A stretch of 64,000 bases of DNA. Origin: Nitrospinales bacterium (GTDB lineage: Bacteria > Nitrospinota > Nitrospinia > Nitrospinales > VA-1). A model generated the notes under the pieces. That model was not told the DNA's origin and made no database searches. It was given only the letters and a program-made list of their open reading frames with translations. The translations under genes were made by a program, and so were the position numbers. Shown piece by piece: positions 1,017-62,956 of this stretch. The stretch lies in NCBI GenBank assembly GCA_965262115.1, contig OZ253496.1:1728001-1792000 (forward strand), written 5' to 3'. The stretch's first letter is position 1. Each line of letters opens with the position of its first letter.

Positions 1017-1054
1017 GTTATATTCTTCATCAGCTTTCATGCCCCATAGGGGTA
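1017..1054 (+). repeat. GTGAT-hairpin mini-element copy (GTTAT variant)
   Basis: gttatattcttcatcagctttcatgccccataggggta matches the family consensus. Confidence 0.8.
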
Positions 1055-1078
1055 CAAAAACAACTTTTAGAGGTACTC

Positions 1079-2116
1079 TTAAGGAAAAACTGCCGGGGCC
1101 ATGAGACCGGTTTTTTCATCCAGGCCCAGCATGATGTTCATATTCTGGACGGCCTGCCCTGAGGCGCCTTTGATTAAATTATCTAATGCGCTGGTGATGA
1201 TCAGGCGCTGGTTTCGCGCATCGACCTTGAGGCCAATATCGCAAAAATTAGAAGAAAGCACATGATGACTGCTGGCGAATTTGCCCGGATTCAATACGCG
1301 AATAAATTTTTCGCCTTTATAAAAATCGCGGTAATGCTCGACCAGTTTTTCATCGCTGAGGGTTTCGTTCAGGTTGATATAAACCGTGCTCAACATTCCC
1401 CGGGTCATGGGAACCAGGTGCGGGGAAAACGTAAGGCGCACGGGTTTACCCGCCAGAGTGGAAAGCTCCTGCTCCATTTCAGGCGTGTGCCGGTGGGCGG
1501 CAAGGCCATAGGGGTTTATGCCTTCGTTGACCTCACTGTAATTTGTGGTCAGGGAAGGTTTGCGTCCGGCACCGGAAACACCGGACTTGCTGTCGGAAAT
1601 TATAGAATCGAGGTCCACCCAATCGGTCTTAAGAAGCGGAGCCAGAGCCAGAATCACACTGGTCGGATAGCAACCCGGGTTGGCAATGAAGCGTGCGGTT
1701 TGAATGGCCTGGCGATGCAGTTCCGGCAAACCATACACAGCCTGCTCAAGAAGCTCTGGGTGGGTATGGGTGACGGAGTACCAGTCCGAGTAGGCTTCTG
1801 GGTCTTTTAGCCGATAGTCTGCGCTCAGGTCGATGATTTTGCAGTCGGACTGCAAATAAACGGGAAGCTTGTCCATGGCCGTTATGTGAGGCAAGGCCAG
1901 AAACAAAACGGAACAATCTTTGGCGATGTTGTCATCCAGAGGCCGAAGCTTGAGATCAACGATTCCATTCAAAGATGGGAAAACCTCGGCGATGTTTTGA
2001 CCCTGAAAAGTCTCGGAGGTCAAAGCCGTAAGTTCCACATCCGGATGCCCGGCAAGAAGACGAATCAATTCCAGTCCGGTGTATCCACTGGCTCCAGCTA
2101 TAGCTATTTTAAACAT
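1079..2116 (-). CDS. argC: N-acetyl-gamma-glutamyl-phosphate reductase
   Basis: MFKIAIAGASGYTG, IANPGCYPT, SGVSGAGR and DNLIKGASGQAVQNMN motifs; start set at MFK. Confidence 0.96.
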   Translation of the reverse strand: MFKIAIAGASGYTGLELIRLLAGHPDVELTALTSETFQGQNIAEVFPSLNGIVDLKLRPLDDNIAKDCSVLFLALPHITAMDKLPVYLQSDCKIIDLSADYRLKDPEAYSDWYSVTHTHPELLEQAVYGLPELHRQAIQTARFIANPGCYPTSVILALAPLLKTDWVDLDSIISDSKSGVSGAGRKPSLTTNYSEVNEGINPYGLAAHRHTPEMEQELSTLAGKPVRLTFSPHLVPMTRGMLSTVYINLNETLSDEKLVEHYRDFYKGEKFIRVLNPGKFASSHHVLSSNFCDIGLKVDARNQRLIITSALDNLIKGASGQAVQNMNIMLGLDEKTGLMAPAVFP

Positions 2117-2201
2117 AGTAAAACGCGCCGGTTTAAGTGGGGGTTTTTCTGCCCCTAATATTGATTGAAAGATATAATCCCAGGGATGTGGCGGAGTACC
2201 T

Positions 2202-2280
2202 CCGCTGGTAGCTTGCAATATCTTTGTCTTGTGGACAAGCTCTATCGCGGCCCGACAAGTTATTGCCCATTTTGCACCGG
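2202..2280. repeat. Degenerate ~80 bp repeat (family 2) with imperfect CCGGTGGCAAAT..GCAAT / ATTGCCCATTTGCCACCGG ends
   Basis: Aligns with 2854-2963, 16367-16394+17675-17742, 23692-23757, 23793-23853, 36532-36593 and 10420-10482 (reverse). Confidence 0.6.
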
Positions 2281-2390
2281 GCGAGGCCCGGCCAGCGCCA
2301 CCATACCATAACGGATGGTTGAAACTCTGTTTTATGCTTGAATAATTTTGGTGGCGGTTGCCCCAGTTTCCCTCGGGCGCTGCCCGGGGC

Positions 2391-2789
2391 TTAACGTTTG
2401 GAGAACTGGAATTTTTTGCGTGCCCCGGGCTGTCCGTATTTTTTTCTTTCTACGGTTCTTGAGTCCCGAGTGAGGAATCCAGCTTTTTTAAGGGGTGCCC
2501 GTAAACCTGGGTCGGTCAAAATGAGAGCCCGGGAAATACCCAGACGCAGTGCTCCGGACTGGCCGGAAAGACCTCCACCCTGAACGGTGGCCTGGATGTC
2601 TATAGACTCTAGTGTGTCAGTCGTGATCAACGGGTGCTTGATGATGCATTCGAGGCTTTCCCGGCAAAAATATTCCTTAATGGATTTGTTATTAACTACG
2701 ATTTTGCCGTCGCCTTTTTGAATCCATACTTTGGCGATAGATTCTTTGCGTTTTCCCGTTGCGTAAAATTTTTCGATGGTGCCTTCCAT
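2391..2789 (-). CDS. rpsI: 30S ribosomal protein S9
   Basis: ATGKRKES, GGGLSGQSGA and ERKKYGQPGARKKFQFSKR. Confidence 0.98.
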   Translation of the reverse strand: MEGTIEKFYATGKRKESIAKVWIQKGDGKIVVNNKSIKEYFCRESLECIIKHPLITTDTLESIDIQATVQGGGLSGQSGALRLGISRALILTDPGLRAPLKKAGFLTRDSRTVERKKYGQPGARKKFQFSKR

Positions 2790-2862
2790 AATCGTGTCTG
2801 CTCTCTTTTTTAAATTTTGCTTAATTGATTATTTTGTTATACCGGCGTTATCACCGGCGGCC

Positions 2863-2900
2863 GTGATATTCTTCCTAAATCTTCGTGCCCCGGAGGGGTA
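2863..2900 (+). repeat. GTGAT-hairpin mini-element inserted in a family-2 repeat in the rplM-rpsI spacer
   Basis: gtgatattcttcctaaatcttcgtgccccggaggggta; removing 2862-2900 gives ccggcggcaaattgcaat, colinear with ccggtggcaaattgcaat at 5536. Confidence 0.85.
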
Positions 2901-2971
2901 AAATTGCAATGTCTTTATTATGCGGACAAATGTTCTCTCGGCTTATAAGCTATTGCCCATTGCTTCTCTCG

Positions 2972-3400
2972 CTAGAGAGCGATCGCTTCCGGGTTTTGAC
3001 TCGTATGCGGGTGCTGGTCGTTATTGTAGATTCTGAAATTGTTGTGCAGGGTTCTGCCTAATCTCGTTTTTGGCAACATTCCCTGGATCGCTTTTTTCAG
3101 CAGATCAGAAGGCTGTTTCTCAAGAACCTGTTTTGCCGTGACGGATTTGATTCCTCCCGGCCAACCGGTATGATGGTAATAAATTTTGTCGTCCCATTTC
3201 TTACCGGTCAGCTTAACCTTTGCGGCGTTGATGATGATGACATTATCCCCTGTATCAACGTGGGGAGTATAAATGGGTTTGGTTTTGCCACGAATGATTG
3301 AGGCGGCTGTGCTGGCCACACGCCCCAACGGTTTGTCGGCAGCATCAATCAGCACCCATTTTTTAACAACGTCGCTCTGTTTAGCAAAAAAGGTTTTCAT
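2972..3400 (-). CDS. rplM: 50S ribosomal protein L13
   Basis: KWVLIDA, GKTKPIYTPHVDTGD and YYHHTGWPGG. Confidence 0.98.
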   Translation of the reverse strand: MKTFFAKQSDVVKKWVLIDAADKPLGRVASTAASIIRGKTKPIYTPHVDTGDNVIIINAAKVKLTGKKWDDKIYYHHTGWPGGIKSVTAKQVLEKQPSDLLKKAIQGMLPKTRLGRTLHNNFRIYNNDQHPHTSQNPEAIAL

Positions 3401-3590
3401 TATATTCCGGTTTCAGTCAATATTATTTTTAATGTCGTAAACCGGCTATAATAAAAGAGATATCTGGCCCTGTCAACTAGAAAGCATCCTTTAATAACGG
3501 ATTTGCCAGAAAGTTTCTTTACTTTATTTTTTGGAGAAAATAGACTAAATTTGTCTATTTTAAATCCTTCTGGGTCTGTAAGCTAACTAT

Positions 3591-5555
3591 ATGGAAAATA
3601 TGGCTCAATCTGAAGGTTTGGCATCTGCACGAGCCAGCGGGGATGTCAATGGAGAGGCTCTGTACCGGTCCATTGAGCGCTCCCGGGACTTTTTGCTCTC
3701 CTGCCAGAACGCCGAGGGTTATTGGGTGGACGAATTGGAGGCCAATGTCACCATTTCGGCCGAATTTATTTTCTTCATGCATTTCACTGACCGGCTGGAC
3801 CCGGTCAAACAAGACCGGATCGTAAAATATTTACTGCATCTTCAAAGGGAGGACGGCAGTTGGCCGCTTTTTTATGGCGGCTTGTGCGACATTAACTCGA
3901 CGGTTGAGTCCTATATGGCTCTCAAAATGGCCGGCCTGCCCGCCGACCGGGAAGAGATGGTGCGGGCCCGTCAGGCGATTTTTGCCAACGGGGGTATCAA
4001 AAAAACCCGGGTCTTCACAAAAATGTTCCTCGCCATGTTCGGTCAGGTTTCCTGGAGCGACTGCCCGGCGGTGCCGGTAGAGATTATTTTGTTGCCCGAC
4101 TGGTTTCCTTTCAATATCTATGAGATTTCGAGCTGGTCGAGAGGTACCGTGGTTCCACTTTCTGTCGTGCGTTCCTTCGAACCGGTGCATGAGCTTCCGG
4201 AAGGGCGGGACGTTCAGGAATTGTTCACCAAAAAGGATGTGGATCTGGATTTCAAACCCAATGGCCTGCCTTTCACCAGCTGGAGAAACACGTTCATATA
4301 TCTCGATCACTTTATCAAGGCTATCGGCCAGTTCCCCTTTAAACCTCTGCGCAAAAAAGCGCTTAAAAAAGTCGAGCAATGGACGCTGGAGCACCAGGAA
4401 GACGAGGGCGACTTTGGCGGCATTCAACCGGCCATGTTCAATGCTCTTTTAGCGTTGTACCTTTTAGGCTACGCCGAAGACCATCCCGCGTGTGTGAAAG
4501 GAATGGAAGCGGTGGACCGCTTCATGCTGGAAAAAGACGGGCGGCTCTGGATGCAGCCCTGCGTCTCGCCTTTGTGGGACACGGCCATCTGCGCCAACGC
4601 CTTGTTGGATTCGGGACTGCCATCCGACCACCCGGCCCTGGTGAAAGCCGGTGAGTGGATCATTGGCAAACAGGTGATCAAGCGTGGCGACTGGCAGGTG
4701 AAGAATCCGACAGCGGAGCCGGGAGGCTGGGCGTTTGAGTTTTATAATGAACTGTATCCGGACACCGATGACACGGCAGAGATTTTGCTTTTCCTCGATC
4801 GGATCGAGGTCGCCGACAACCGCTGGAAGTTGAGCGAATGCCAGCGGGCGATGGACTGGTTGTTGAGCATGCAAAGTAAAAGCGGTGGATGGGGAGCCTT
4901 CGATGTGGATAACGATAGGGAGGTTCTCAACGAAGTTCCTTTTGCCGACCATAAGGCGTTGCTGGATCCTGCAACGGTGGATGTGACGAGCCGGATTCTT
5001 TGGATGCTGGCAAAATGGGGATTTAAAAAACAGCACCCACAGGTTCAACGGGCCATTGCGTTTATCAAAGATCGTCAGGAAGTGGATGGTTGCTGGTATG
5101 GCCGATGGGGAGTGAATTATATTTATGGAACGTTTTTAGCCTTGAACGGTTTGTGTGCCATCGGTGAGGACATGAAGGACAGGTTCAGCCGGCAAGCTGT
5201 CCTCTGGTTAGAAACTCACCAAAATGAAGATGGAGGTTGGGGTGAAACCTGCCAAAGTTATATAGAGTCGAGCTTGCGGGGTCGGGGTCAAAGCACTGCC
5301 TCACAAACTGCCTGGGCCTTACTGGGGCTCATCGCTGCCGGTGAGGAAAAAAATTCGGTTGTAGAACGCGGCGTGTGCTTTTTAATCGAAACGCAAAAAG
5401 AGTCGGGGGAGTTTTCAGGAAGCTGGTGGGAGGATGAGTTCACCGGTACCGGGTTTCCCATCCATTTCTTCATCAAATACCATATGTATCAGCATTTCTT
5501 CCCGCTGATGGCTTTGTCCCGCTACCGGCGAGCCGCCGGTGGCAAATTGCAATAG
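3591..5555 (+). CDS. shc: Squalene-hopene cyclase
   Basis: YPDTDDTA (DXDD) catalytic motif, repeated QW motifs (QREDGSW, QSKSGGWG, QNEDGGWGE), FTGTGFP. Confidence 0.95.
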   Translation: MENMAQSEGLASARASGDVNGEALYRSIERSRDFLLSCQNAEGYWVDELEANVTISAEFIFFMHFTDRLDPVKQDRIVKYLLHLQREDGSWPLFYGGLCDINSTVESYMALKMAGLPADREEMVRARQAIFANGGIKKTRVFTKMFLAMFGQVSWSDCPAVPVEIILLPDWFPFNIYEISSWSRGTVVPLSVVRSFEPVHELPEGRDVQELFTKKDVDLDFKPNGLPFTSWRNTFIYLDHFIKAIGQFPFKPLRKKALKKVEQWTLEHQEDEGDFGGIQPAMFNALLALYLLGYAEDHPACVKGMEAVDRFMLEKDGRLWMQPCVSPLWDTAICANALLDSGLPSDHPALVKAGEWIIGKQVIKRGDWQVKNPTAEPGGWAFEFYNELYPDTDDTAEILLFLDRIEVADNRWKLSECQRAMDWLLSMQSKSGGWGAFDVDNDREVLNEVPFADHKALLDPATVDVTSRILWMLAKWGFKKQHPQVQRAIAFIKDRQEVDGCWYGRWGVNYIYGTFLALNGLCAIGEDMKDRFSRQAVLWLETHQNEDGGWGETCQSYIESSLRGRGQSTASQTAWALLGLIAAGEEKNSVVERGVCFLIETQKESGEFSGSWWEDEFTGTGFPIHFFIKYHMYQHFFPLMALSRYRRAAGGKLQ

Positions 5556-5561
5556 TTTCTT

Positions 5562-5600
5562 TACCCCCTACGGGGCACGAAAACTGAGGAAGAATATCAC
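5562..5600 (-). repeat. GTGAT-hairpin mini-element copy
   Basis: Reverse complement gtgatattcttcctcagttttcgtgccccgtagggggta. Confidence 0.85.
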
Positions 5601-5789
5601 GTGCTCACTGGCCTCACGCCCGGTGGCCCCTGCAAAGGTCTCTTCCGCAAGGGGGCCAGGGGGATTTGACGGGCCGTATGTAATTTGCCAGTGGTGGCTA
5701 CACCGCCTTAATTCACTGCAAGCAAAGGCGATTTAGTGTATAAATGTAACTTCATTTAAAACTCCATAAAATTCGAGGTGCAGGAAGGC

Positions 5790-6635: not shown

Positions 6636-6782
6636 CCGACCAACGGCCGGTGGCAACCACTGGCGTGAGGCCAGTATAAATGCTCCTCCCCTGACAAGGG
6701 GAGGCTGGGAGGGGTTGCTTTAGTCGTCATTGCGAACCGAAACGGCGTGACCGTGATAATTCACCTTAGCCTTTGTGAGCTT

Positions 6783-6822
6783 GTGATGTCCTTTTCCTCA
6801 AACTTCATGCCCCGCAAAGGCA
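6783..6822 (+). repeat. Degenerate GTGAT-hairpin mini-element copy
   Basis: gtgatgtccttttcctcaaacttcatgccccgcaaaggca; 3' arm of the hairpin is decayed. Confidence 0.6.
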
Positions 6823-7167
6823 AAATGAAGGCATGATAATTTTCCTTTCCTGCCAAGGGGTCCGGCTCGACAAGTCTTTGCCTGACTCGTCGCAGGGGAA
6901 AATAGCAATGACCCATTGTTCGCCTGCAGACGAATCGTTTACCGATGAAAAATCCGTCCATATCCCTGTTTTTATTTTTTGCCTTGTTGTTAAGGCAGTT
7001 GTTATAATGAAGCGCTCCGTAGAGTCGGATAAAACGGTTCAGATGTTGTGGACGTAAAGTAAGTCCTCGCCTATTGAGGTTGAGGCCGCTTCTGAGTAAG
7101 TCGGATTGTTAGACGGATTGTGCCCTTCTTGGCGTGAAACTATTATTTACAATGTTATGGGGTAGCC

Positions 7168-9942: not shown

Positions 9943-9949
9943 CAGGAGA

Positions 9950-10073
9950 GCTTTGCATAATCTGGGATTACCCCTTCTACCCGTTCCGGGCATGAAAGCT
10001 TGGGTGAAATATCCTCAACATTAGTCTTCATGCCCGGAACGGGTAGAAGGGGTAATCCCAGATTATGCAAAGC
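9950..10073. repeat. Perfect 47-bp inverted repeat with 30-nt spacer
   Basis: 9950-9996 is the exact reverse complement of 10027-10073. Confidence 0.9.
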
Positions 10074-10328
10074 GAGATTCTTCGTCACCTTGTTCCTCAG
10101 AATGACAAAAGTACTTCTTCTTGTCATTCTGAACGCAGTGAAGCAATCCAGGGTTTGATTTAGTAATACTTCCTCTCCCTTCATAGGGAGAGGATTGAGG
10201 TGAGGGTTTGATTTCCGCCTACAGCCTTCTCCAGAGCTTTTCCTCAAACCAGAACCTGGATCGCCACGCTCATTTTAGTTGCTCGCGATGACGGGAGCGG
10301 GTAATTGTCATTCTGAACGAAGTGAATA

Positions 10329-10367
10329 CGTGATGTTTCACCCAAGCTTTCATGCCCCGAAGGGGTA
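10329..10367 (+). repeat. GTGAT-hairpin mini-element; unoccupied perfect IS110 target
   Basis: c-gtgatgtttcacccaagctttcatgccccgaaggggta interrupts a REP-like GTCATTCTGAACGAAGTGAA..AATCTC; the reverse strand reads TTACCCCTTCGGGG. Confidence 0.88.
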
Positions 10368-12910: not shown

Positions 12911-12914
12911 GACT

Positions 12915-14159: not shown

Positions 14160-14207
14160 AAAGCCCTCTCCAAAAGGGGTTGGAATAGAATGCTTATTCG
14201 ATTCTAA

Positions 14208-16329: not shown

Positions 16330-16429
16330 AACTTTCCAAATATTTAAAGATTAGCGCGGAGTACCTCCGCAGGTAATTTGCAATATCTTTATCTTACCCC
16401 TTGTATGTTGTTCATAAGGGGAATTTGTA

Positions 16430-16625
16430 GTAGTTGTACCTGTGAGCCCTGTGGGAAGCCGGTTTTGTGTTTTCCACAAGGCTCACAGGGTTTGATTCAG
16501 GGCACAATAGATCGTTTACCCCTTGGGCTTTTAAGCCCGTCCCGAAGCGCAGATCGTTGTGTCCTATTTTGATTAACCCGAACAGTTGCCTGGGCCACTG
16601 AGCCCGCATCGGCAAGGCTGGGAGA
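16430..16625 (+). ncRNA. Predicted IS110 bridge RNA (5' stem-loop, target-binding loop, donor-binding loop); ends approximate
   Basis: Stem-loop 16439-16489; TTACCCCT (16516-23) / inner stem / CCCGAAG (16541-47) match the target; ACAGTTGC (16582-89) / inner stem / CAAG (16613-16) match the RE-LE junction. Confidence 0.88.
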
Positions 16626-16632
16626 CCAAATT

Positions 16633-17583
16633 ATGAATCAGAAACCCCATTTTATTGGCATCGATATTTCTAAACTCCATCTGGATGTTGCTGACAGCAT
16701 GACTCAAGAAACCTGGCAAACCGCTAACAATGAAGAAGGGATTGCTGGTTTGGTCGAGAGTTTATCCGCCTTAAATCCTCCATTGATCGTTTTGGAAGCC
16801 ACAGGCGGCTTAGAGATCCCGTTGGCTTCGGCCCTGGTTGCGGGTCGACTGCCAGTAGCCGTGGTCAACCCACGGCAAGTTCGTGATTTTGCCAAAGCCA
16901 CCGGGAAACTGGCAAAAACCGATGTCATTGATTCTCTTGTGCTGGCCCATTTTGCCAGGGCCGTACGTCCTGAGGTCAGGAAAATCAAAGACGAAGAATC
17001 TCTTGAACTCTCAGCTCTAGTGACACGCCGTCGCCAGTTGATCGAGATGCTGACCAAAGAAAAAACCCGTCTAAAACAAGCTCCAAAATGGATATGTAAA
17101 GACATTAAGGAGCATATCGAATCTCTTAAAAAACGCTTGCGAAAAATCGATGGCGACCTTTCCAGAACCATCAAAAACAGTTCTGCCTGGCGTGAGCACG
17201 ACCAGATTATACAAAGTGTTCCCGGTGCCGGTCCCGTTCTGGCTGTCAACCTCTTGGCCGGGGTTCCGGAACTTGGAGTTCTTAATCAGAAGCAAATCGC
17301 CGCCCTCATCGGTCTCGCTCCCCTCAATCGGGACAGCGGAAAGTTCCGGGGCCGCCGGTGTATCTGGGGCGGCCGCGCCAATGTGCGTGCCGCTTTATAC
17401 ATGGCCGCCGTCACTGCCATGCAGCATAATCCCGTGATTCGTACCTTTTACACACGCCTCATCGAAAAGGGCAAACCCTTTAAAGTTGCCATTACCGCAT
17501 GCATGAGAAAGTTATTAACGATCATCAATACCATGATCAAAACAAAAACACTCTGGAATGAAAATCTCATTGCCAGCACTTGA
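16633..17583 (+). CDS. IS110-family DEDD recombinase/transposase
   Basis: GIDISK, VLEATG and KTDVID (DEDD); C-terminal domain with RDSGK serine motif. Confidence 0.96.
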   Translation: MNQKPHFIGIDISKLHLDVADSMTQETWQTANNEEGIAGLVESLSALNPPLIVLEATGGLEIPLASALVAGRLPVAVVNPRQVRDFAKATGKLAKTDVIDSLVLAHFARAVRPEVRKIKDEESLELSALVTRRRQLIEMLTKEKTRLKQAPKWICKDIKEHIESLKKRLRKIDGDLSRTIKNSSAWREHDQIIQSVPGAGPVLAVNLLAGVPELGVLNQKQIAALIGLAPLNRDSGKFRGRRCIWGGRANVRAALYMAAVTAMQHNPVIRTFYTRLIEKGKPFKVAITACMRKLLTIINTMIKTKTLWNENLIAST

Positions 17584-17600
17584 CATTTAACACAGTTGCT

Positions 17601-17674
17601 TCGGGGCATGAAGTACCCGTGCCGGGCATAAAGATTAATGAAGAGGCCATCACAACCGATGAGGGGTCATAACA
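17601..17674 (-). repeat. Two nested GTGAT-hairpin mini-elements (outer copy continues at 16395-16401, split by IS110)
   Basis: Inner 17614-17654 reverse complement t-gtgatggcctcttcattaatctttatgcccggcacgggta; outer reconstructs as gttatgacccctcatcggtcttcatgccccgaaggggta. Confidence 0.82.
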
Positions 17675-17755
17675 TGCTGCCAATGTGCTTTTGGTGAGCC
17701 GAGAGTATCGTTGCTAGCGGTAAAAAGCTATTGCCCACTGCCTGCCCCTGCCAAG

Positions 17756-17883
17756 GAGAGCTTTGCATAACCCAAGATTCTTCGTCACCTTGCTCCTCAG
17801 AATGACAAAATGGCCCAGTATTGTCATGCTGAGCTTGTCGAAGCATCTCGGTTCTCCGATTTTTCGACTTATGCAAAGGTCTC
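17756..17883. mobile_element. 128-bp MITE with 9-bp target-site duplication
   Basis: Ends gagagctttgcataa / ttatgcaaaggtctc; cctgccaag repeated at 17747-55 and 17884-92. Confidence 0.9.
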
Positions 17884-40055: not shown

Positions 40056-40093
40056 TAGCCCTCCGGGGCAAAAAGGCAAAGGTTAAATATCAC
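40056..40093 (-). repeat. GTGAT-hairpin mini-element copy overlapping a stop codon
   Basis: Reverse complement gtgatatttaacctttgcctttttgccccggagggcta. Confidence 0.7.
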
Positions 40094-40776
40094 TAGTGGG
40101 CGGAATGCATGCTATGTGTTTTTTTCCGTTGTTCTTCAGTCAGCAGGTTGAGCAAAGCGATTTTTGCTTCTGCCGTTGCCATGATCATTTGAGTTTTGGT
40201 CGCGGCAATTTTCCCAGCCGCTGATCGGATGGCTTGGGCATTTACCTTCTCAGCATGGACCAGTCTGTTGAACTCCATATGCGCAATTTTGTGCTCGGCC
40301 TTGTTGCGAATGCTTTTCTTCCGGTATTCAAATCGCAGTCTCTTGACTTCCGCCACCTGGGCTTCGGTCAGGCCCAGTTTGTCTTTGAAGCGTAACAAAT
40401 GGGTGAACGGGCATTTGCTGGTGTGGCTTCCATGTGAACTTTTTTTATAACCGTGACCGGATCGGGCATGGTGCGAACTTCCTTCGGACTTTTTGTAACT
40501 ATGTCCCTTTGATTTTCTATGATGGTAATAGGATTTTTTAGAGCCACTTCCTTCCGCTTTACGATGACTACTGTTTCCAGATATATGATGGCCCTTGCTT
40601 CCGGAAATATGGTGGGGCATTGTTTTGGTTTTACTGCCCTCAGCTTTTTTCTCTCCATGACTGTAACTGCCGGCACTGCCGGTGCCGATGGAGTCCATTC
40701 CGGTTGCAGCCAGAGCGCTTTGGCTGAAGAACAGGGTTGCAGTCAGAATGACCAGTCTTATTTTCAGATTAAACAT
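40093..40776 (-). CDS. Spy/CpxP-like periplasmic protein with His/Lys/Ser-rich N-terminal region
   Basis: Signal peptide, LGLTEAQ and LLTEEQ (LTxxQ) motifs, repeated K(A/S)EGS and HHISG. Confidence 0.8.
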   Translation of the reverse strand: MFNLKIRLVILTATLFFSQSALAATGMDSIGTGSAGSYSHGEKKAEGSKTKTMPHHISGSKGHHISGNSSHRKAEGSGSKKSYYHHRKSKGHSYKKSEGSSHHARSGHGYKKSSHGSHTSKCPFTHLLRFKDKLGLTEAQVAEVKRLRFEYRKKSIRNKAEHKIAHMEFNRLVHAEKVNAQAIRSAAGKIAATKTQMIMATAEAKIALLNLLTEEQRKKTHSMHSAH

Positions 40777-41915: not shown

Positions 41916-42463
41916 ATGCAACTCACTGATGAAAATTATATGCTGTATGGATTATTATTTGTCTGCTTTCTGTTGGGCTTGTTGTTTAATGTTGCCAAGC
42001 GTCTCGGCTCCTCCAAAAATTTCCCGCCCCCCAAAGATGAGAAGGATAAGTGAATCACCGAGGATTTTTAATTTTTCCTTACCCTGTTAAATGCCATACG
42101 TAGCAAGATAATTCCAAAGAAAATAATCCTTTGCCAACGAATTCATGGTCTGCATCCGTCCTCCCCCCCCCCTTTTTTTTTACGATCCTCTTCAGGTTTT
42201 TCATACTTGAGATCCCCCCATATCACAGAAAAAAGGCCGGAAAGCTGGACAAACTTTATTGCCATTATTTATCAATCAATAGGGGTTTCAATTCGTGTGG
42301 TCTAAGCTGGCAAGAACAGGGCCTTAGTTCAAATAGTTGAGTGAAGGAAAGCTATATTCCTTTTATTATCAATCATCTTCTATTGGGAACGGTCATGAAC
42401 AGGTCAAAAAAAATTACGCTGGGGATTTTGATTTTAGCTCTCTGGTTTCTCCCGGTTTTAGCG

Positions 42464-42631
42464 GAGAACTTTGCATAACCCAAGATTCTTCGTTGCAATA
42501 GCTCCTCAGAATGACAAAATAGCCTTTTATTGTCATGCTGAGCTAGTGATATTTGACCTTTGAATTCTTGCCCCGCAGGGGTATCTCGAAGCATCTCGCT
42601 TTTCTGCTTTATAGACTTACGCAAAGGTCTC
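42464..42631. mobile_element. MITE with 9-bp target duplication, containing a mini-element
   Basis: gttttagcg at 42455-63 and 42632-40; same termini as the 17756 copy. Confidence 0.9.
42545..42583 (+). repeat. GTGAT-hairpin mini-element inside a MITE
   Basis: Removal gives gtcatgctgagcttctcgaagcatctcg, versus gtcatgctgagcttgtcgaagcatctcg in the 17756 copy. Confidence 0.88.
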
Positions 42632-43118
42632 GTTTTAGCGGGGGCTGGTCAGAAAAGTTTGACAGATGAGATCAAGTTTTTGGATGGCATCAAAAATGTG
42701 GATTGGTACAGAGTGGATGGCCAAAACATCATCATCGGTTGGAGACGGATGCCAGACACTTTTTATGCATGGAACCACAGGGCAGATGTAAATGCCAGCA
42801 GGTCATCAATCTATAAAGTCTATGTTTGGTCGGTTCGATCCCGCCAGAAAGATTGGTCGCCGGGAGAGGGAGGCCAAGTCTGCATCACTACGGCCAAAAT
42901 GGGCCGTTTTGGAAAAAGCAACTGCAAGAGATAACAGGAGTTGCTGTTTGAAGAAGTAAATAATGATTAAGGTTTGAATCGTTCTGGTTTTTATTTTGGA
43001 ACGGGAAGCAATGGGGACTCACCTGGCAGACCTTGTTCTTTTCAAATTCCGCTAACGCATCCTGCGTTTGTTTGAGCCTGTGGATTTCTTTCAAAAAATG
43101 GGTTGAGCGACAGACTTC

Positions 43119-43158
43119 GTGATATTACCAACATTAAACTTCGTGCCCCGGAGTGGTA
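43119..43158 (+). repeat. GTGAT-hairpin mini-element copy
   Basis: gtgatattaccaacattaaacttcgtgccccggagtggta. Confidence 0.78.
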
Positions 43159-43357
43159 GACCCAGTAAGAGTCCAGCTACTTATTCTTTTGCAGTTATAA
43201 TTCCCCCGATTTTGTTCTAAAATCCTCCCTGTTTGACAATATTCTCCTGCTGAAATAGCATTGGTATTCCCAATACAACGAGGTGGCTAGTGGAGAAACT
43301 TCTCTTTCTATTCCTGCTTGTCCTACTGCGGCCTTTTTATTTCTGTGGATTATAAAT

Positions 43358-44251
43358 ATGGAAGTATCGAATCAAAAACCCTGGCAGGGTATCGGTGCGG
43401 ATGTTGACAAAAACGATTCCGCTGCTGAAATATTATACAAGGCAAAGCTCGATTGGGAGGTTAAAAGAGTTCCTTCTCAGCGGCCAATATCCTACGGCAA
43501 TCAGGAAACGATTAGGTTCTTCAAAGCCTTTTTTGAGGTCGCCGAGGCCGAAATAGAAACTGTAGGCGGCCTTGATAATGCAAGAATACTTTGGAGCCTT
43601 GCCTGTTTGAATGAAGATTTCACTTTGCGGGGAGGAGACAAGGTAAGGGGTTACGTCTTGCTGGCCTCGCGGGATGATGGTAGGGAAAGAATTGAAATTC
43701 AGTTTCTTACCGTGCGGGAAAGTTGTCATAATATGTTAAAGATTGTTTCCAATGCCAAATCCCACATGAAAAATATTTTCAGAAGTACGTTTAAACCTAC
43801 CTTTCCATTTAAGAACGAGAAGCGCCAAAAATTTGATGATAAGATGAAGCAAAAAGTAAATGACATCATCGTTCCAGGGCGCGAGGCGATCACTGCTTTT
43901 GCAAATGTTGCTCGGGACCTGTCAGATAAAAATTGGGATGAACCAATAGCTTGGAGGTATCTGTTTGAAGTTTTTCAGCCGGATACCCTTGAAGGTGTTT
44001 CTGTAATCGGTGAGAAAGAATTGGATGAACTTGCGGAGAAAAACACAAAGTTAGCTATTGAGGCTTTCTCTCAGGCACCGGGACAGGATCTTGAATCTGC
44101 TAAAATGACCGCTTGGGGGTTATTGAATGCGGTTATCTACATTATCGATCACCAACTCGGATCTACTAAAGACTATCGCCTGCGGCAGGCTTGGTTTGGT
44201 CCGAATGCCAAAATTAAGCAACGAGCTCTTGACCTTGCATTGGAAATATGA
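43358..44251 (+). CDS. DUF932-like phage/plasmid-associated protein
   Basis: PWQGIG...AKLDWEV N-terminus and TAWGLLNAV..IDH...AWFG...K.RA C-terminus. Confidence 0.7.
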   Translation: MEVSNQKPWQGIGADVDKNDSAAEILYKAKLDWEVKRVPSQRPISYGNQETIRFFKAFFEVAEAEIETVGGLDNARILWSLACLNEDFTLRGGDKVRGYVLLASRDDGRERIEIQFLTVRESCHNMLKIVSNAKSHMKNIFRSTFKPTFPFKNEKRQKFDDKMKQKVNDIIVPGREAITAFANVARDLSDKNWDEPIAWRYLFEVFQPDTLEGVSVIGEKELDELAEKNTKLAIEAFSQAPGQDLESAKMTAWGLLNAVIYIIDHQLGSTKDYRLRQAWFGPNAKIKQRALDLALEI

Positions 44252-45782: not shown

Positions 45783-46225
45783 CGTTGTCTTTACCACCTG
45801 TATTCTCTTGCCGTAAAATTTAATACTAAATTTAAAATGACCATGACTATACCCTACAGGCGGTATATCCTTGGGATTCGGACACATTCCGCAAACAATT
45901 TTTCCAGCCTGTGTTTGATAATTTCTCCAATTCCATCCTATAAAACATCCCTGCCTCTTTAATCATCTTGCCCAGTATCACATCCTCTTAATCATCGATA
46001 ACAGGAATTGACACCCGGGATCATTCAGGGTTGAGCCGTTAGAGCATATAAAAATGAATAAACAGAAAGCGGGAGTTGAGTAGCATATTGTGGCAAGAAC
46101 TTCATAAAAAAATTCGCTGCTACCCAAAAAACAGAGAGCGTAATCATGAATTTAATGAATATATCCATTACCAATAATATGTAGTGGCTAAGATTTGATC
46201 TTCCCCTGTTTTAGTGGACAGTTAG

Positions 46226-47089
46226 TTAAGAGGCATAGGCCTGTTTCTCGAATTCGGCAGGGCTGAGATAGCCGAGATATGAGTGACGGCGTTGCCGATT
46301 ATAAAACACTTCGATATATTCAAAAATATCCTTCTTTGCTTGCTGACGGGTTTTGTAGTTCCGGTTATGAATGAGTTCCACTTTGAGAGTATGGAAAAAA
46401 CTCTCCGCCACGGCGTTATCCCAGCAATCGCCCTTCCGGCTCATACTGCACTCTATCCCATGAACATTGAGCAAGGCTTGAAAATCGTTGCAGGCATATT
46501 GAACCCCCCGGTCAGAATGGTGAATCAATCCCGGTTTCATGCCGCCGTTCTTCATTGCCATATTTAAAGCTCTCATTACCAACCAACGGGTTATCCAACG
46601 ATCCATGGCCCAACCAATAACTTTACGGTGGAATAAATCCAGCGTCACCGCAAGGTATAACCAGCCCTCTTGAGTCGGGATATAGGTGATATCCGAAACC
46701 CAGCATTGACCGGGCTCAGCAACATTAAACCGCCGTTGCAGTTTGTTTTTTGCCACCGGGTGATTATGTTTGGAATCGGTTGTCACCCTGAACTTTCTTT
46801 TGTGCTTGGCAACGATTCCATGCTCGCGCATAAGACGGGCAATACGATGCCTGCCAATGGCATATCCCTTGTCTTTCAAGTCCTCATGAATTCTGGGACT
46901 GCCATAAGTCTGGCGACTCTTCTTATAAACGGTTTTGATCTCATCAACCCATCGCTGCTTCTCACGGCTCCTCAGGCTCTCGGGGCGGCTCAGCCAGGCA
47001 TAGAACCCACTTCGTCCCACTTCCAGAACCCGGCACATCGGGCTTACCGGAAATGCTTCTCGATGATCCCGTATAAACCGATATCTCAT
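46226..47089 (-). CDS. IS3 transposase OrfB (DDE integrase core)
   Basis: [22 protein letters not shown] and DNAVAESFF. Confidence 0.92.
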
Positions 47090-47139
47090 TGGGAACCCTT
47101 CGAGTACCCCTTGTATGTTGTTCATAAGGGGAATTTGTA

Positions 47140-47335
47140 GTAGTTGTACCTGTGAGCCCTGTGGGAAGCCGGTTTTGTGTTTTCCACAAGGCTCACAGGG
47201 TTTGATTCAGGGCACAATAGATCGTTTACCCCTTGGGCTTTTAAGCCCGTCCCGAAGCGCAGATCGTTGTGTCCTATTTTGATTAACCCGAACAGTTGCC
47301 TGGGCCACTGAGCCCGCATCGGCAAGGCTGGGAGA
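47140..47335 (+). ncRNA. Predicted IS110 bridge RNA, copy 2
   Basis: Same sequence as 16430-16625. Confidence 0.88.
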
Positions 47336-47342
47336 CCAAATT

Positions 47343-48293
47343 ATGAATCAGAAACCCCATTTTATTGGCATCGATATTTCTAAACTCCATCTGGATGTTG
47401 CTGACAGCATGACTCAAGAAACCTGGCAAACCGCTAACAATGAAGAAGGGATTGCTGGTTTGGTCGAGAGTTTATCCGCCTTAAATCCTCCATTGATCGT
47501 TTTGGAAGCCACAGGCGGCTTAGAGATCCCGTTGGCTTCGGCCCTGGTTGCGGGTCGACTGCCAGTAGCCGTGGTCAACCCACGGCAAGTTCGTGATTTT
47601 GCCAAAGCCACCGGGAAACTGGCAAAAACCGATGTCATTGATTCTCTTGTGCTGGCCCATTTTGCCAGGGCCGTACGTCCTGAGGTCAGGAAAATCAAAG
47701 ACGAAGAATCTCTGGAACTCTCAGCTCTAGTGACACGCCGTCGCCAGTTGATCGAGATGCTGACCAAAGAAAAAACCCGTCTAAAACAAGCTCCAAAATG
47801 GATATGTAAAGACATTAAGGAGCATATCGAATCTCTTAAAAAACGCTTGCGAAAAATCGATGGCGACCTTTCCAGAACCATCAAAAACAGTTCTGCCTGG
47901 CGTGAGCACGACCAGATCATACAAAGTGTTCCCGGTGCCGGTCCCGTTCTGGCTGTCAACCTCTTGGCCGGGGTTCCGGAACTTGGAGTTCTTAATCAGA
48001 AGCAAATCGCCGCCCTCATCGGTCTCGCTCCCCTCAATCGGGACAGCGGAAAGTTCCGGGGCCGCCGGTGTATCTGGGGCGGCCGCGCCAATGTGCGTGC
48101 CGCTTTATACATGGCCGCCGTCACTGCCATGCAGCATAATCCCGTGATTCGTACCTTTTACACACGCCTCATCGAAAAGGGCAAACCCTTTAAAGTTGCC
48201 ATTACCGCATGCATGAGAAAGTTATTAACGATCATCAATACCATGATCAAAACAAAAACACTCTGGAATGAAAATCTCATTGCCAGCACTTGA
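47343..48293 (+). CDS. IS110-family DEDD recombinase/transposase
   Basis: Protein identical to 16633-17583. Confidence 0.96.
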   Translation: MNQKPHFIGIDISKLHLDVADSMTQETWQTANNEEGIAGLVESLSALNPPLIVLEATGGLEIPLASALVAGRLPVAVVNPRQVRDFAKATGKLAKTDVIDSLVLAHFARAVRPEVRKIKDEESLELSALVTRRRQLIEMLTKEKTRLKQAPKWICKDIKEHIESLKKRLRKIDGDLSRTIKNSSAWREHDQIIQSVPGAGPVLAVNLLAGVPELGVLNQKQIAALIGLAPLNRDSGKFRGRRCIWGGRANVRAALYMAAVTAMQHNPVIRTFYTRLIEKGKPFKVAITACMRKLLTIINTMIKTKTLWNENLIAST

Positions 48294-48310
48294 CATTTAA
48301 CACAGTTGCT

Positions 48311-48344
48311 TCGGGGCATGAAAGCCAATGAAGAGGACATCACA
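48311..48344 (-). repeat. GTGAT-hairpin mini-element split by IS110 (rest at 47105-47111)
   Basis: Reconstructs as t-gtgatgtcctcttcattggctttcatgccccgaaggggta. Confidence 0.88.
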
Positions 48345-48619
48345 AAGATAACTGTCGCCTTTTTTAATATGTCCCGCTCCATACGAAGGCGAGCGTTTTC
48401 TCGCCGCAACTGCTGCAACTCATCTCCCGGCTTAAGCTGTCCTTTGCCGGGAAACGCATTCCCCTGATCCTCCTCATACTCCTGTTTCCAGCGACCCAGA
48501 AGGGCAGAACGGATTCCCAGATCCCGGGACACCCGGGCAATGCTATCGCCTACTTCAATAACCAATCGAACCGCTTCTAACTTGAATTCTTTACTGAAAC
48601 TCCTGCGTTTGGTTCCCAT
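48345..48619 (-). pseudogene. IS3 transposase OrfA with interrupted 3' end
   Basis: RRSFSKEFKLEAV HTH and LRRENARLRMERDILKKA with an A6G slippery site. Confidence 0.88.
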
Positions 48620-48779
48620 AAAAACACCTCCAAAAGTGTATTATCCACACTTTTCGATGTGTCCACCAATTCAGGGGAAGATCAGTTGGATTATGGATCG
48701 TCAAAGACAATCCACACCACCCCCCTCATGAGAGGGGAGGATCAATGAGAATCTCGACTTATGCAAAGGTCTCCTCGGC

Positions 48780-51220: not shown

Positions 51221-51224
51221 CCAT

Positions 51225-55323: not shown

Positions 55324-55494
55324 AACTTTATAAAATCAAAAACTAAATTGGGCTTTGGATTCCTGAAACGAAAAAACATCTAAATCTCTAGAGGATGCAG
55401 AAAAACGCACGCCATCGACATGCATAGCCCGTTATGCTAAATTATAGTATAGCCCTATATCAGCAAATAACTATTCTACCTTTGAGTTCCTTTA

Positions 55495-56617: not shown

Positions 56618-56638
56618 TTTTTACAGTTTGCCTACACA

Positions 56639-57778: not shown

Positions 57779-57862
57779 ACCTCTTATTGTATAAAAACTT
57801 TCTAAGCCACCGGATTGTAATTATCCTGATGAGGTGCATGCTACGGTGGAGTTGGTTTGATA

Positions 57863-58798: not shown

Positions 58799-59037
58799 CG
58801 TTGTTCTCTTTTACGCTTGTGAATAATTTGTGCAGTTCTATTTTACGCAGCAACCTATGAAAAGGGGTTAGAAGTAGGGAATACGTACCATCTGACAAAT
58901 CCGCAACAAGAGTTTGTTTTTGCCAAGGCCCGTTGACCTTATAGTCCTTCAACAACCATTTTTCAAGTTCAAAAACTTAAACTAATCAAACCGAAACACT
59001 CTATGCAAACATCTAACTTTCTTAGCAATCCTCTAAT

Positions 59038-60186
59038 TTAACTACATTTTGAGGCTGCCAGAATTTTATTGAACAAGTTGGCATAAGTTTTCGCTACTTT
59101 TTCCCAAGTGAAGCCTTTAAGAACACGATTTCTTCCGTTTTTACCATATTCAGTTCTTTTATTTTTGTTTTGCAATAAATCTATTATAGCTAGGGCTATT
59201 TCGTCTAAATCGTTCGGGTTGACCAGAATTCCCATCTTATCACGTTCAACCGCATCAGGGATACCACCACTGTCTCCACCCACGACAGCCTTTCCGGCAT
59301 AGCCTGCCTCAAGAAAAGCAATGCCAAATCCCTCCACGCTATTTTCGTATTGACGGCTTATCATCGCAAAAACATCACATTCATGATAACAAGCCGCAAC
59401 ATTTTCATTAGAAATCGCCCCGGCAAATGTGACCTTTTCCCTAAGGTTCAATTGGTGAAAAGCCAGGTTTTCCAGGTATTCCTTATCTGGACCGTCGCCG
59501 ACCATGAGGTAGTGAGCGTTTGGAATCGCCTTCAGTATCTTGGGCAATGATTTTAACAAGTGATCCTGCCCTTTATGCTTAGTCAATCTGGCCACTGTTA
59601 AGATGATAAGCTTCCCATCAAGATTATATTTTGCGCGGACATCGACATTGTTTTTTATTATTGGCGTTGTCCCGTGATTGATGACGGTGAGTAATGATGG
59701 GTTAACACCTAACCCCTTAAAGTGGTTTGCCGCGTATGTACTTCCCGGGACAAGCGCGGAAGCATGGTTCATCTTTTTAACAATGCTTTTTCTTTTCCTG
59801 GATTGAACCTCATGGCCATGTAATGCGACAACATAGGGCCTGCATAGAATTTTATTAATGTGATATGCAATGGTTAAATAGTTACCCCTTTGCACGATAA
59901 AAATAAGGTCTGCCCTGAGCATTTCGAATAGACATTTTTGATAAAGGTCAATTTTCGAAGAATACCTTAAGATATTATAGGGCCTTTCTATATCAAAACT
60001 TTTATGAGCAGGGGACGCAGGGGCAAGCACTGTAATGTTAAAATTCAATTTCGCCAGAGGCAGGGCAAGTTGGGATGAGTATGTGGCTAAACCACCTAAC
60101 TGAGGGGGGTACGAATTAGCACAAATTAATATTCTAGGCATCGTGGTGGACCAATCTTTTTTTAATTTAACAACTTTTTGCGCCAC
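59038..60186 (-). CDS. GT4 glycosyltransferase
   Basis: TVARL..HKG and EGFGIAFLEA...GGIPDAV. Confidence 0.88.
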   Translation of the reverse strand: MAQKVVKLKKDWSTTMPRILICANSYPPQLGGLATYSSQLALPLAKLNFNITVLAPASPAHKSFDIERPYNILRYSSKIDLYQKCLFEMLRADLIFIVQRGNYLTIAYHINKILCRPYVVALHGHEVQSRKRKSIVKKMNHASALVPGSTYAANHFKGLGVNPSLLTVINHGTTPIIKNNVDVRAKYNLDGKLIILTVARLTKHKGQDHLLKSLPKILKAIPNAHYLMVGDGPDKEYLENLAFHQLNLREKVTFAGAISNENVAACYHECDVFAMISRQYENSVEGFGIAFLEAGYAGKAVVGGDSGGIPDAVERDKMGILVNPNDLDEIALAIIDLLQNKNKRTEYGKNGRNRVLKGFTWEKVAKTYANLFNKILAASKCS

Positions 60187-60317
60187 TCTAACGATATTCT
60201 TTTAAGGATTCAAGTTCTCCGCAGATATTGTCTTGATCTCCCCTAGAAAACTGAACATAGTGATCCATATTTTATGTTAGAATTTGGGTCAAAAACTTGA
60301 TGTTCATGGAGGATAAA

Positions 60318-61389
<1,072 letters not shown>

Positions 61390-61391
61390 AT

Positions 61392-62255
61392 ATGCGAATT
61401 TTGGTTACGGGGCTCAATGGATTTACCGGATGTCACCTCCAACCCGAATTGGCAGCTCAAGGGCACGTCGTCAAGGGATTAAACGCCGATTTGACTAATC
61501 CGGTAGCTGTCTCAACCGAGATTTCGCAATTCAAACCAGAAGCCGTAGTTCATCTTGCTGCTATCTCTTATATTGACCACGGTAATGCCCGTGCATTTTA
61601 TGAGGTCAACCTGATAGGTGCACGAAACCTGCTGGAAGGTTTAGACCAACACGCGCCCGATGTGCGCAGTATTTTATTGGTGAGCAGTGCCAACATATAT
61701 GGTAATCATACAGAGGATATTTTAAGCGAAGAAACCACACCAGATCCAGCCAATGATTATGCCGTGAGCAAATTGGCCATGGAGCAAATGGCCCAGTTGT
61801 GGGTTGAGCGACTACCACTGTTCATTGTTCGGCCCTTCAACTATACCGGTATCGGGCAGAAAAAACAGTTTTTGATCCCCAAGATTGTTGCTCACTTTCG
61901 GGAAAACAGACCGCTTATCGAGCTCGGCAATCTCGATGTTTGGAGGGAGTTTGGGGATGTACGTTCCGTGGTTAATATTTACAGAAAACTATTAGAGCAT
62001 TGCCCTGCAGGTGACACCCTGAATGTATGCACTGGCCAAACCTACTCATTGCATGAGATAATTGCATTGTGTGAAAAAATTACCGGGCATAGCATCGAAA
62101 TCCAGGTAAACCCTGAATTTGTCCGCGCTAATGAAGTGCGTGAATTAAGAGGTTCCAGCAGTCGCCTCAACAGGCTAATCGGAGAAAGAAAGTCATTCCA
62201 TATTGAGGAGACGCTGACATGGATGCTGAATGACGAAAAATTCAACTCGGCTTAA
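61392..62255 (+). CDS. GDP-4-keto-6-deoxy-mannose reductase-like NAD-dependent epimerase/dehydratase
   Basis: TGLNGFTG, YAVSK and RPFNYTG; follows gmd. Confidence 0.85.
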   Translation: MRILVTGLNGFTGCHLQPELAAQGHVVKGLNADLTNPVAVSTEISQFKPEAVVHLAAISYIDHGNARAFYEVNLIGARNLLEGLDQHAPDVRSILLVSSANIYGNHTEDILSEETTPDPANDYAVSKLAMEQMAQLWVERLPLFIVRPFNYTGIGQKKQFLIPKIVAHFRENRPLIELGNLDVWREFGDVRSVVNIYRKLLEHCPAGDTLNVCTGQTYSLHEIIALCEKITGHSIEIQVNPEFVRANEVRELRGSSSRLNRLIGERKSFHIEETLTWMLNDEKFNSA

Positions 62256-62318
62256 TGTTGAAAACTTACCAGGAGATCATTTACCACTCAAGGCAAATAA
62301 ACCTGCATAAAAAGCTTT

Positions 62319-62534
62319 CTAAGCCGCCGAATTGTAGTTATTCCGGGGAACAACATATTCCATATCCAGCTTCTTCTTCACCCAAGTTGGAACCTGCTGG
62401 CGACTGCTTGGGTTCAGGGTTTTGTTCTCTTCAGCAGTTTGAAACATATTCCAATGCGTTCTGCTGAGTTCTTCAGCCGAAATAATCCTTTTAATTTTTC
62501 CTTGAGCATTGAAAATCTTCACCTCGTAAAACAT
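62319..62534 (-). CDS. Small hypothetical protein
   Basis: GGGAG ribosome-binding site and an upstream sigma54-like promoter. Confidence 0.65.
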   Translation of the reverse strand: MFYEVKIFNAQGKIKRIISAEELSRTHWNMFQTAEENKTLNPSSRQQVPTWVKKKLDMEYVVPRNNYNSAA

Positions 62535-62577
62535 AGCTTTTCTCCCAAAAGGTCAATATTCGCATCTACCTTCTAAC

Positions 62578-62594
62578 TGCAAGGCCTCTGCCAA
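62578..62594 (-). promoter_or_regulatory. Sigma54 -24/-12 promoter
   Basis: Minus strand TTGGCAGAGGCCTTGCA (GG-N10-GC). Confidence 0.65.
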
Positions 62595-62827
62595 AATCTT
62601 CCGGCCCGGGAAAAAAGAGTTTAACTGACTAAATAACAATGATTTTAATAAGTCGCCCTAAAAGGGGGAGACGTTGCAAATGCCAAATTAAGTTGGCACC
62701 CAAAACATACTCGTAAAAATACCAATACAATACTTGTAGTTAGCAGACTGGCAAAATTAATCAGGGTATTGTGGGTAACCATAAAACAGAAACTTAAGAA
62801 GGTCCCTCGCCTACTAGGCGTGGTGCT

Positions 62828-62956
62828 GTGATATCCCCTTAATAATTTTCATGCCCCGGAAGGGGGACAATGAGAACGTGATATTCTTCATTTGCTGTGA
62901 TGACCTCTTCATTACTATTCATGCCCGGCACGGATACTTGGTGCCCCGGAGGGGTA
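62828..62956 (+). repeat. Cluster of three GTGAT-hairpin mini-elements (one single, two nested)
   Basis: 62828-67 single; 62878-956 outer copy containing inner 62896-936. Confidence 0.82.

Follow-up and report, generated by a model that had tools for sequence, protein, structure and literature searches.

How a bacterial repeat of fewer than 50 bases moves has been an open question since the small dispersed repeats (SDRs) of cyanobacteria, and the locus analysed here raises it again. The window, meaning the whole stretch of 64,000 nucleotides (nt) from position 1,728,001 to 1,792,000 of contig OZ253496.1, belongs to a Nitrospinales bacterium, a marine nitrite-oxidiser whose genome (labelled G000) is one contig of 2.68 Mb, 93.9% complete, and it carries copies of a hairpin-ended element of about 40 nt. 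This element is real and mobile. Its first base pairs with the base in front of its terminal hairpin, and it inserts flush, with nothing duplicated. As to how it moves, our leading but tentative explanation is that a folded single DNA strand, its ends held by one base pair, is copied in by a trans-acting enzyme under the guidance of the flank. Comparisons were made with other Nitrospinota genomes (labelled G003, G007, G013 and so on; 120 genomes for the phylum and 23 for the genus), and all data are assembled contigs.

The genome holds about 400 copies, or about one per 7 kb. A hidden Markov model of the element gave 403 matches at 12 bits or more, compared with one in a shuffled genome, and the hairpin motif alone gave 314 matches compared with none in one shuffle. 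Within the window, this motif (at most three mismatches) occurs 14 times, while 200 shuffles gave a mean of 0.24 and a maximum of 2. Full copies are 39 nt (126), 40 nt (66), 41 nt (79) or 38 nt (3) long, that is, 39-41 nt in 271 of 274. Only 19 of 395 matches lie inside open reading frames (ORFs) of at least 150 amino acids (aa), which cover 68% of the genome, and many of these are read-through of IS3 orfA or spurious frames. The hairpin (at most one mismatch) is present in 43 of the 120 Nitrospinota genomes, where a reversed control pattern gave at most one match per genome; it was found in 20 of the 22 other genomes of the genus, in 6/6 of a second genus and 8/17 of a third, with a few copies in another family. 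In a GTDB scan with at least 125 matching stretches, all 80 records listed were from Nitrospinota. Rfam gave no family, the only hits being tRNAs at the gathering threshold and a sub-threshold microRNA match to the 9967-10056 palindrome, and no match in the phage and plasmid collections spans the element. The repeat is not described in the full-text literature searched, a search that left most subscription journals, supplements and ISfinder outside.

Each copy starts with a variable first base (N) and a GTGAT-type leader, runs through a pyrimidine-rich spacer of 13-16 nt to the word TTC-N′, and closes with a 6-bp stem, a G-N-A loop and a flush GGGTA end. The ends stay conserved while the spacer varies. 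A preliminary description of the window, made from its letters, had reported a compensatory change in the stem and a GNA loop, and both are confirmed: the stem pair is C-G in 97 and G-C in 24 of 146 copies, and the loop has G in 408 and A in 421 of 433 distinct bodies, its middle base being free (A 196, C 112, G 74, T 51). PMC3201870 presents d(GNA) as a stable DNA triloop. Since the loop rule matches this DNA triloop, which exists on the written strand only, we infer that recognition is of the written strand in its DNA form.

The first base N is complementary to N′, the base 5′ of the stem, in 526 of 579 pooled copies and in 120 of 146 dereplicated ones (T-A 76, C-G 37, A-T 7). The mutual information between the two is 0.63, compared with a null maximum of 0.18, and the end pair is found in 119 of 139 flank clusters, compared with 69 after permutation (maximum 81); none of the other positions tested pairs with N. 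Near-identical bodies occur with T-A or A-T, and with T-A or C-G, end pairs, both bases having switched jointly. Folding with joined ends predicts the end pair with a probability of 0.65 (DNA) or 0.74 (RNA), compared with 0.01-0.02 for linear folds, and in the modelled end-joined fold the 3′ A and N lie adjacent on one helix strand. The extra variable base seen with each insert is thus part of the element's own fold. The suggestion that it could be an untemplated addition by a reverse transcriptase (RT) is not supported, as it forms a Watson-Crick pair with the base in front of the hairpin.

An empty-like paralogue exists in the same genome for 180 of 314 copies. In 115 of these 180 the junction is flush, the insert being exactly N plus GTGAT...GGGTA with nothing duplicated; 32 more are flush after correction for the early start of the search pattern, and 33 are ambiguous. 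At site 2862, the orthologues in G013 and G003 are empty and flush, and at site 1016 they are likewise empty, with one C fewer than flush removal would give. Further clean filled/empty pairs are G000:1404358 and a site filled in G013 (stretch position 223311) and empty in the own genome; most other orthologous alignments were unusable, the intergenic DNA being too diverged. Related IS3 copies in G016, G069 and G003 have an unoccupied, flush IS3 junction, while all 7 uninterrupted IS3 sites of the own genome are filled. The element also nests into at least four positions of itself and inserts precisely in other repeats. No single-unit loss was seen among the rows listed for samples X3 and X4.

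The flush sites and the orthologous empty sites bear out the preliminary reading of a minimal, non-autonomous, self-nesting mobile element that makes no target duplication, and they add that it is polymorphic between relatives. The proposed check for presence and absence at orthologous loci gave clean empty sites at 2862 and at the IS3 junction, and the IS3 OrfA/OrfB junction rebuilt by removal is real, as the empty, flush IS3 copies of relatives show. For the family-2 repeats, the claim holds in part: removal at 2862 is flush in relatives, whereas at 16395 it is unlikely to give back a single repeat. At this locus the left and right sides come from different host-repeat contexts, and the gene downstream was not found beside tig in the examined 400 kb of G013, so 16395-17674 is probably a rearrangement joint. 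The target is not duplicated, but its left flank differs in some target classes (see below).

All copies listed in the preliminary description are present, and their spans have been made exact; an additional host copy starting at 6752 had gone unlisted, and the pairs given as 16395/17673 and 47105/48343 are each a single copy split by an IS110 element. The copies of the window are as follows.

1016-1054, forward strand: full 39-nt copy with a T...A end pair; empty in G013 and G003 with one C fewer.
2862-2900, forward strand: full 39-nt copy with a C...G end pair, lying between rpsI and rplM; in G013 and G003 the site is empty, with a flush junction.
5562-5601, reverse strand: copy with one extra G in the 3′ arm.
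6752-6781, forward strand: 5′ part of a host copy, its hairpin arm reading AG at -4,-3 before the nested copy.
6782-6822, forward strand: degenerate 41-nt copy nested in the hairpin of that host copy.
9978-10045, no strand assigned: two copies fused head-to-head, in the middle of a perfect inverted repeat of 47 nt (9950-10073).
10329-10367, forward strand: full 39-nt copy in a TGTC-type palindromic repeat.
16395-16399, reverse strand: 3′ end of an IS110-split copy.
17601-17613, reverse strand: hairpin 5′ arm of the IS110-split host copy.
17614-17654, reverse strand: 41-nt copy (CCCG/CGGG stem) nested in the spacer of the host copy.
17655-17674, reverse strand: 5′ part of the host copy; its left flank has the CAGCA allele typical of filled family-2 hairpins.
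40056-40094, reverse strand: degenerate 39-nt copy with an A...T end pair.
42545-42583, forward strand: 39-nt copy with an A...T end pair, inside a MITE (a miniature transposable element with inverted repeats); intact site at 17821-17850.
43118-43158, forward strand: 41-nt copy.
46196-48684, reverse strand: IS3-family host element bearing a copy and an IS110 element.
47105-47109, reverse strand: 3′ end of the copy in IS3, split by IS110.
48311-48344, reverse strand: 5′ portion of the copy lying where orfA and orfB of IS3 meet.
62827-62866, forward strand: 40-nt copy with a degenerate end.
62877-62956, forward strand: host copy (62877-62895 and 62937-62956) interrupted by a nested copy of 41 nt (62896-62936).

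Copies are also spread by the IS3, MITE and palindromic repeats that carry them, and this might be the whole story if a few old insertions had been multiplied by such hosts and then mixed by gene conversion and slippage. Large host classes do share one common first base, every IS3 copy in the own genome carries the element, nearly all copies in G048, G049 and G052 sit at one host site, and strain X5 is without whole host modules at several sites. We nevertheless hold this to be very unlikely: there are 139-204 distinct flank contexts, the element alone is flush present or absent at 2862, G000:1404358 and position 223311 of the G013 stretch, it nests into at least four self positions, and conserved ends stand against a varying spacer.

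The preference for a target is loose: over 115 contexts, G occurs at -5 in 68, a purine at -3 in 89 and A at -2 in only 1, and positions +1 to +3 are A/T-rich. The spacer was considered as a target guide and rejected, with no signal in best-match (115 contexts), duplex-energy (154 clusters) or position-pair tests (173 clusters). A few subtypes pair with their own flank by eye, an effect lost under permutation, and no flank-element pairing exceeds the null except that of N with N′.

Some target classes carry a changed left flank once filled. Where the target is the hairpin of another copy, at the arm/loop junction, CC has become AG at -4,-3 in 14 of 18 filled sites and in none of 246 intact ones of the own genome; the 14 changed sites involve 12 different hosts and 11 different inserts, and window positions 6752-6822 are a further, degenerate example. 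The family-2 hairpin, with the same replacement, reads CAGCA in 8/11 filled sites versus 0/86 intact ones, and the spacer target reads GTAGC (T to G at -5) in 3/8 versus 0/48, again within the own genome. Changed flanks keep their length. A left-flank change in the family-5 hairpin class was dropped, as its filled sites and its intact ones were drawn from different genomes and a test within the own genome gave noise. Over 70 contexts, new alleles number 40 on the left and 14 on the right, with a peak at -5 to -3. Bodies are more alike among copies with like left flanks in unlike wider contexts (z 3.5-4.8), and among 270 pairs of near-identical bodies, at least four of the five left bases are common in 45 (background 8.7%) and as many of the right bases in 26 (background 5.2%). 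Tandem neighbours have a common hairpin apex in 23 of 40 pairs, compared with 7.5 after permutation. Filled sites with a TG-AG-C flank also occur in unrelated repeat context, so that candidate donors exist and the carry-over of a donor flank is workable as the source of the change.

In the mechanism that we favour, the written strand would become single-stranded and fold, N pairing with N′ on top of the terminal stem, so that the two ends would meet as in a nicked helix. An enzyme reading this end junction would join the 3′ end exactly to the +1 base of the target, while the left end would be resolved in a fixed register of about 5-7 bases against the donor's own left flank; with such a register, positions -3 to -5 can take donor letters without a change of length. 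The enzyme would probably also bring along a few bases of the donor's left flank. Filled sites may serve as donors for look-alike empty sites, which would explain both self-nesting and host-specific subtypes. Whether this amounts to a new mode of DNA movement, in which a strand of about 40 bases closes on itself by one base pair and the donor's left flank guides the copy-in and rewrites the target, is a more doubtful matter, and we put it forward as a possibility. If true, a scar-free inserter with a recognition unit of 40 bases would represent new recombination chemistry and a possible tool, and the same machine could move other ultra-small bacterial repeats that lack an enzyme. The footprints that it should leave are testable, namely a swappable end pair, a DNA-specific loop that names the active strand and traceable flank changes.

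Several observations weigh against this mechanism. Three other target classes (two TGTC/MITE classes and a C-rich hairpin class) have no flank change, and a genome-wide left/right asymmetry is not established: with the two recurrent classes counted once each, the new alleles are about 21 versus 14, which is not significant. The right flank tracks body similarity as well (z 1.1-3.1; identity at +1 of 0.44 versus 0.29), so residual shared descent of the host repeats contributes. Whereas -3 and -4 change, the base at -1 mostly keeps to the target, a pattern not expected of a simple contiguous tract, and the inserts at changed sites are mostly of other body types than those at natural TG-AG-C sites. 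There is no bias in orientation relative to transcription (37:43) or GC skew (109:120), where lagging-strand substrates would predict one, although the skew of this genome is patchy. Finally, the search yielded no enzyme, and the assembled contigs showed no excised or joined molecule.

Some of the same features would suit a Y1/HUH transposase of the IS200/IS605 or RAYT type, acting in trans and since lost or phage-borne, which would excise a single-stranded circle and re-insert it. Such a route makes no duplication, uses a DNA-type hairpin, lets the end pair form in the circle and fits the copies in phage contigs; the element also has a 4-nt word 5′ of the stem, where such enzymes read their guide (PMC8266576). 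A TnpA/RAYT mover had been suggested in the preliminary description, but PF01797 (Y1) and NF047646 (RAYT) find nothing in the own genome or in the near-complete, copy-rich G013 and G007. Y1 is present in 7/23 genus genomes, among them the copy-free G009, unrelated to copy number, and no plausible HUH motif was seen in 2782 crude ORFs. In addition, there is no fixed target tetranucleotide, N′ pairs with the base after the junction and not with the base before the cut, and the left-flank changes are left unexplained. We consider this route unlikely.

An RNA route has reportedly been proposed for the cyanobacterial repeats, and here a transcript with its left flank could be reverse-transcribed from a nick in the target, possibly made by a GIY-YIG nuclease, after which the cDNA end would anneal to the left flank. 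In the 5′ junction of R2-like elements, the cDNA end anneals to the target's left flank. Retrotransposition of this kind would explain the precise right end, the changes at -3 to -5 with matched -1/-2 and the fast-changing spacer, and small GIY-YIG genes are found in 14/23 genus genomes, including the five most copy-rich. The G-N-A loop, however, follows a DNA rule, and N is templated by pairing, not random. RT occurs in 8/23 genus genomes, but in the own genome it is broken debris in the low-GC, gene-poor first 100 kb, and none was found in G019 or G007, no intact RT having turned up in these three carriers. The GIY-YIG genes, for their part, have other repeats on their flanks and are also present in genomes that have no copies. 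On balance, this route is distinctly unlikely. The first 100 kb itself (G000:C1:1-100000) has a GC content of 38-42%, only 3-13% of its length in ORFs of at least 200 aa, no element copies and the RT debris; this part of the contig may be attached foreign (host-like) DNA.

The mover itself was not found in a family-by-family search (no full Pfam scan of the proteome was run) of a genome that is 93.9% complete. Inspection of 52 orphan 3′ ends and 45 orphan 5′ ends brought up no long autonomous copy with the same ends. Across genomes, no gene family turns up repeatedly next to copies, low-copy genomes having housekeeping neighbours, and none of 29 ORFs of two phage contigs (the 50-kb contig covered in part) looks like a mover. 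Y2 (IS91/rolling-circle) gave 0/5 genomes, control genomes being equally silent. Among the candidates rejected, Cas1 is present in 4/5 genomes and absent from G068, the loci inspected being CRISPR-cas; serine recombinase is in 1/5 genomes and not in the own one; and the shared HNH genes are syntenic core genes. The tyrosine recombinases come down to XerC/D and a truncated core gene. The latter is a single-copy integrase-like gene at G000:C1:2164612-2165397 that occurs in 52/120 Nitrospinota genomes; here its product ends before the region of the catalytic tyrosine, and no such gene was found in G013, G007 or G006.

Small GIY-YIG genes were rejected as the mover as well: the repeats on their flanks belong to other families, G068 (31 matches) yielded none, and they are present in copy-free genera. 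These genes (about 95-112 aa) lie between inverted CGTC/TGTC-type repeats, for example at G000:C1:2573200-2573538 (L034:1330-1940) and at L036:1440-1740. Since CGTC repeats seem to be without a dedicated transposase (PMC3733652), this position makes the GIY-YIG genes candidate movers of the CGTC/TGTC-type repeats. DUF559 nucleases (9 matches) were set aside for the same kind of flanks: the genes at G000:C1:377367-377768, 735414-735782, 1582279-1582647 and 1034351-1034749 are flanked by 35-40-nt inverted repeats of the C-rich/G-rich hairpin family that also hosts the element.

The preliminary description had seen no candidate enzyme in the window, but it contains an IS110 recombinase in two copies, for which the element is a target and not a cargo. 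The corresponding features are the following.

16400-17600, forward strand: IS110 element bounded on each side by a CT core, lying within a copy's hairpin loop.
16500-16625, forward strand: predicted bridge RNA (fold z -4.6).
16517-16524 and 16541-16547: predicted left-target and right-target guides; predicted donor guides near 16582-16589 and 16613-16616.
16633-17583, forward strand: IS110 recombinase gene, 316 aa (PF01548, PF02371, NF033542).
47110-48310, forward strand: second IS110 element, with its gene at 47343-48293 (316 aa).

The genome has 24 IS110 recombinases, and all full copies but two lie in the element's hairpin loop with the CT core on both sides. Their left non-coding end has a two-loop RNA fold in which the left and right target guides together spell the hairpin. 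The right guide equals its target in 24/24 copies, an A-guide going with a GAA loop (22) and a C-guide with a GCA loop (2), and the C-guide variant is 88% identical to the main variant. This is the same bridge-RNA architecture, and the same use of a repeat as target, as in IS621, for which PMC11208160 describes a CT core, a left-end bridge RNA, guide-target matching and REP targets; here, in contrast, the target is itself an actively mobile element of 40 nt, and each of two IS variants reads its own loop variant. With its high copy density and as the landing site of 24 IS110 copies, the element shapes the host genomes.

That the IS110 recombinase moves the element might be argued from its 24 copies and from a guide that matches the hairpin, and IS110 enzymes can move small modules (PMC12288879, on ISPpu9). 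However, IS110 uses a CT core within the loop for recombination, and this core remains on either side of it, while the element ends elsewhere and without a core, and the IS110 donor guide matches its own ends and not those of the element. PF01548 is found in 6/23 genus genomes, with one truncated copy in G013 (453 hairpin matches) and none in G019. We regard this explanation as extremely improbable: because the cut site differs, the element leaves no core and the family occurs in only 6/23 genus genomes, IS110 is a parasite of the element and not its mover. At several IS110 copies, the left and right flanks come from different host contexts, as after recombination between copies, and such mismatched flanks point to rearrangements. 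At G000:C1:2144612-2145982, one IS110 is inserted in the bridge-RNA region of another.

By analogy, the closest kind appears to be the cyanobacterial SDRs (SDR1-8, Nostoc punctiforme and relatives), which Elhai et al. in 2008 (Genome Res 18:1484) reportedly described as very small (21-27 nt), folded and self-nesting, inserting precisely in other repeats, with a mover that is not known. The likeness lies in the tiny size, the fold, the self-nesting, the precise insertion in repeats and the missing mover, and the present element is of the SDR type in being shorter than 100 nt, dispersed, present in many copies, precisely inserted and nested. Compared with the SDRs so described, it is longer, belongs to another phylum and carries a DNA-type G-N-A hairpin at its very end. 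We know of no report of end-to-end pairing or flank changes in SDRs. The precise insertion of SDR5 is covered in PMC4390886, and PMC3116915 likewise refers to these repeats.

Other known systems share some traits. REP/REPIN sequences (PMC3116915, PMC8266576, PMC3733652) are likewise short intergenic hairpin repeats in hundreds of copies that IS110 elements target. The present element differs in the word before the stem (TTC-N′, with no GTAG/CGTC tag), in occurring as single units and not inverted doublets, and in its long unpaired leader, and there is no linked RAYT gene flanked by copies as in REP/REPIN-RAYT systems. With IS200/IS605 (PMC8266576) and PATE elements it shares the absence of target duplication, a hairpin with a 4-nt word at its 5′ foot and a single-strand signature, but it has one hairpin only, no fixed 4-5-nt target word and no Y1 gene with the same ends, and it is far shorter. 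Unlike a classical MITE, its ends differ (no terminal inverted repeats) and it inserts flush without duplication. It lacks the core dinucleotide at both ends and the match to the donor guide of an IS110 mini-element, and the RYYYAAC/GTTRRRY boxes of an integron attC cassette, no active integron integrase having been found.

Full copies occur in 3 of 8 viral contigs that bear the hairpin; the three have the end pair, one being Mu-like and one, of 50 kb, holding at least six copies. Judging from these contigs, phages may be a route of spread between genera. In the relatives G048 and G049, of another family, positions two and three of the leader have diverged, but pairing of the first base with N′ persists and the hairpin is unbroken; all ten of their copies inspected occupy one site of a CGTC-type repeat. 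At G000:C1:814859-815055, four identical tandem copies lie within a nest of more copies, and one subtype dominates such homotandems.

Some neighbouring features of the window are also worth recording. The MITE at 42455-42631 and 17750-17883 is 177 nt long, with about 189 end-motif matches genome-wide; strain X5 is without the 42455-42631 copy, and 10 letters there can be assigned to either side of the joint, the pattern expected of a target duplication. A DUF932 (TIGR03299-like) gene at 43283-44251 adjoins a copy; in strain X5 the junction holds 2.8 kb of different DNA. Further families of short hairpin modules that have a TATTGC core in common are found at 2191-2230, 5526-5560 and 16356-16394 and genome-wide, three families giving 114, 127 and 129 hairpin matches; their presence varies between relatives, and one of them also has a G-N-A loop.

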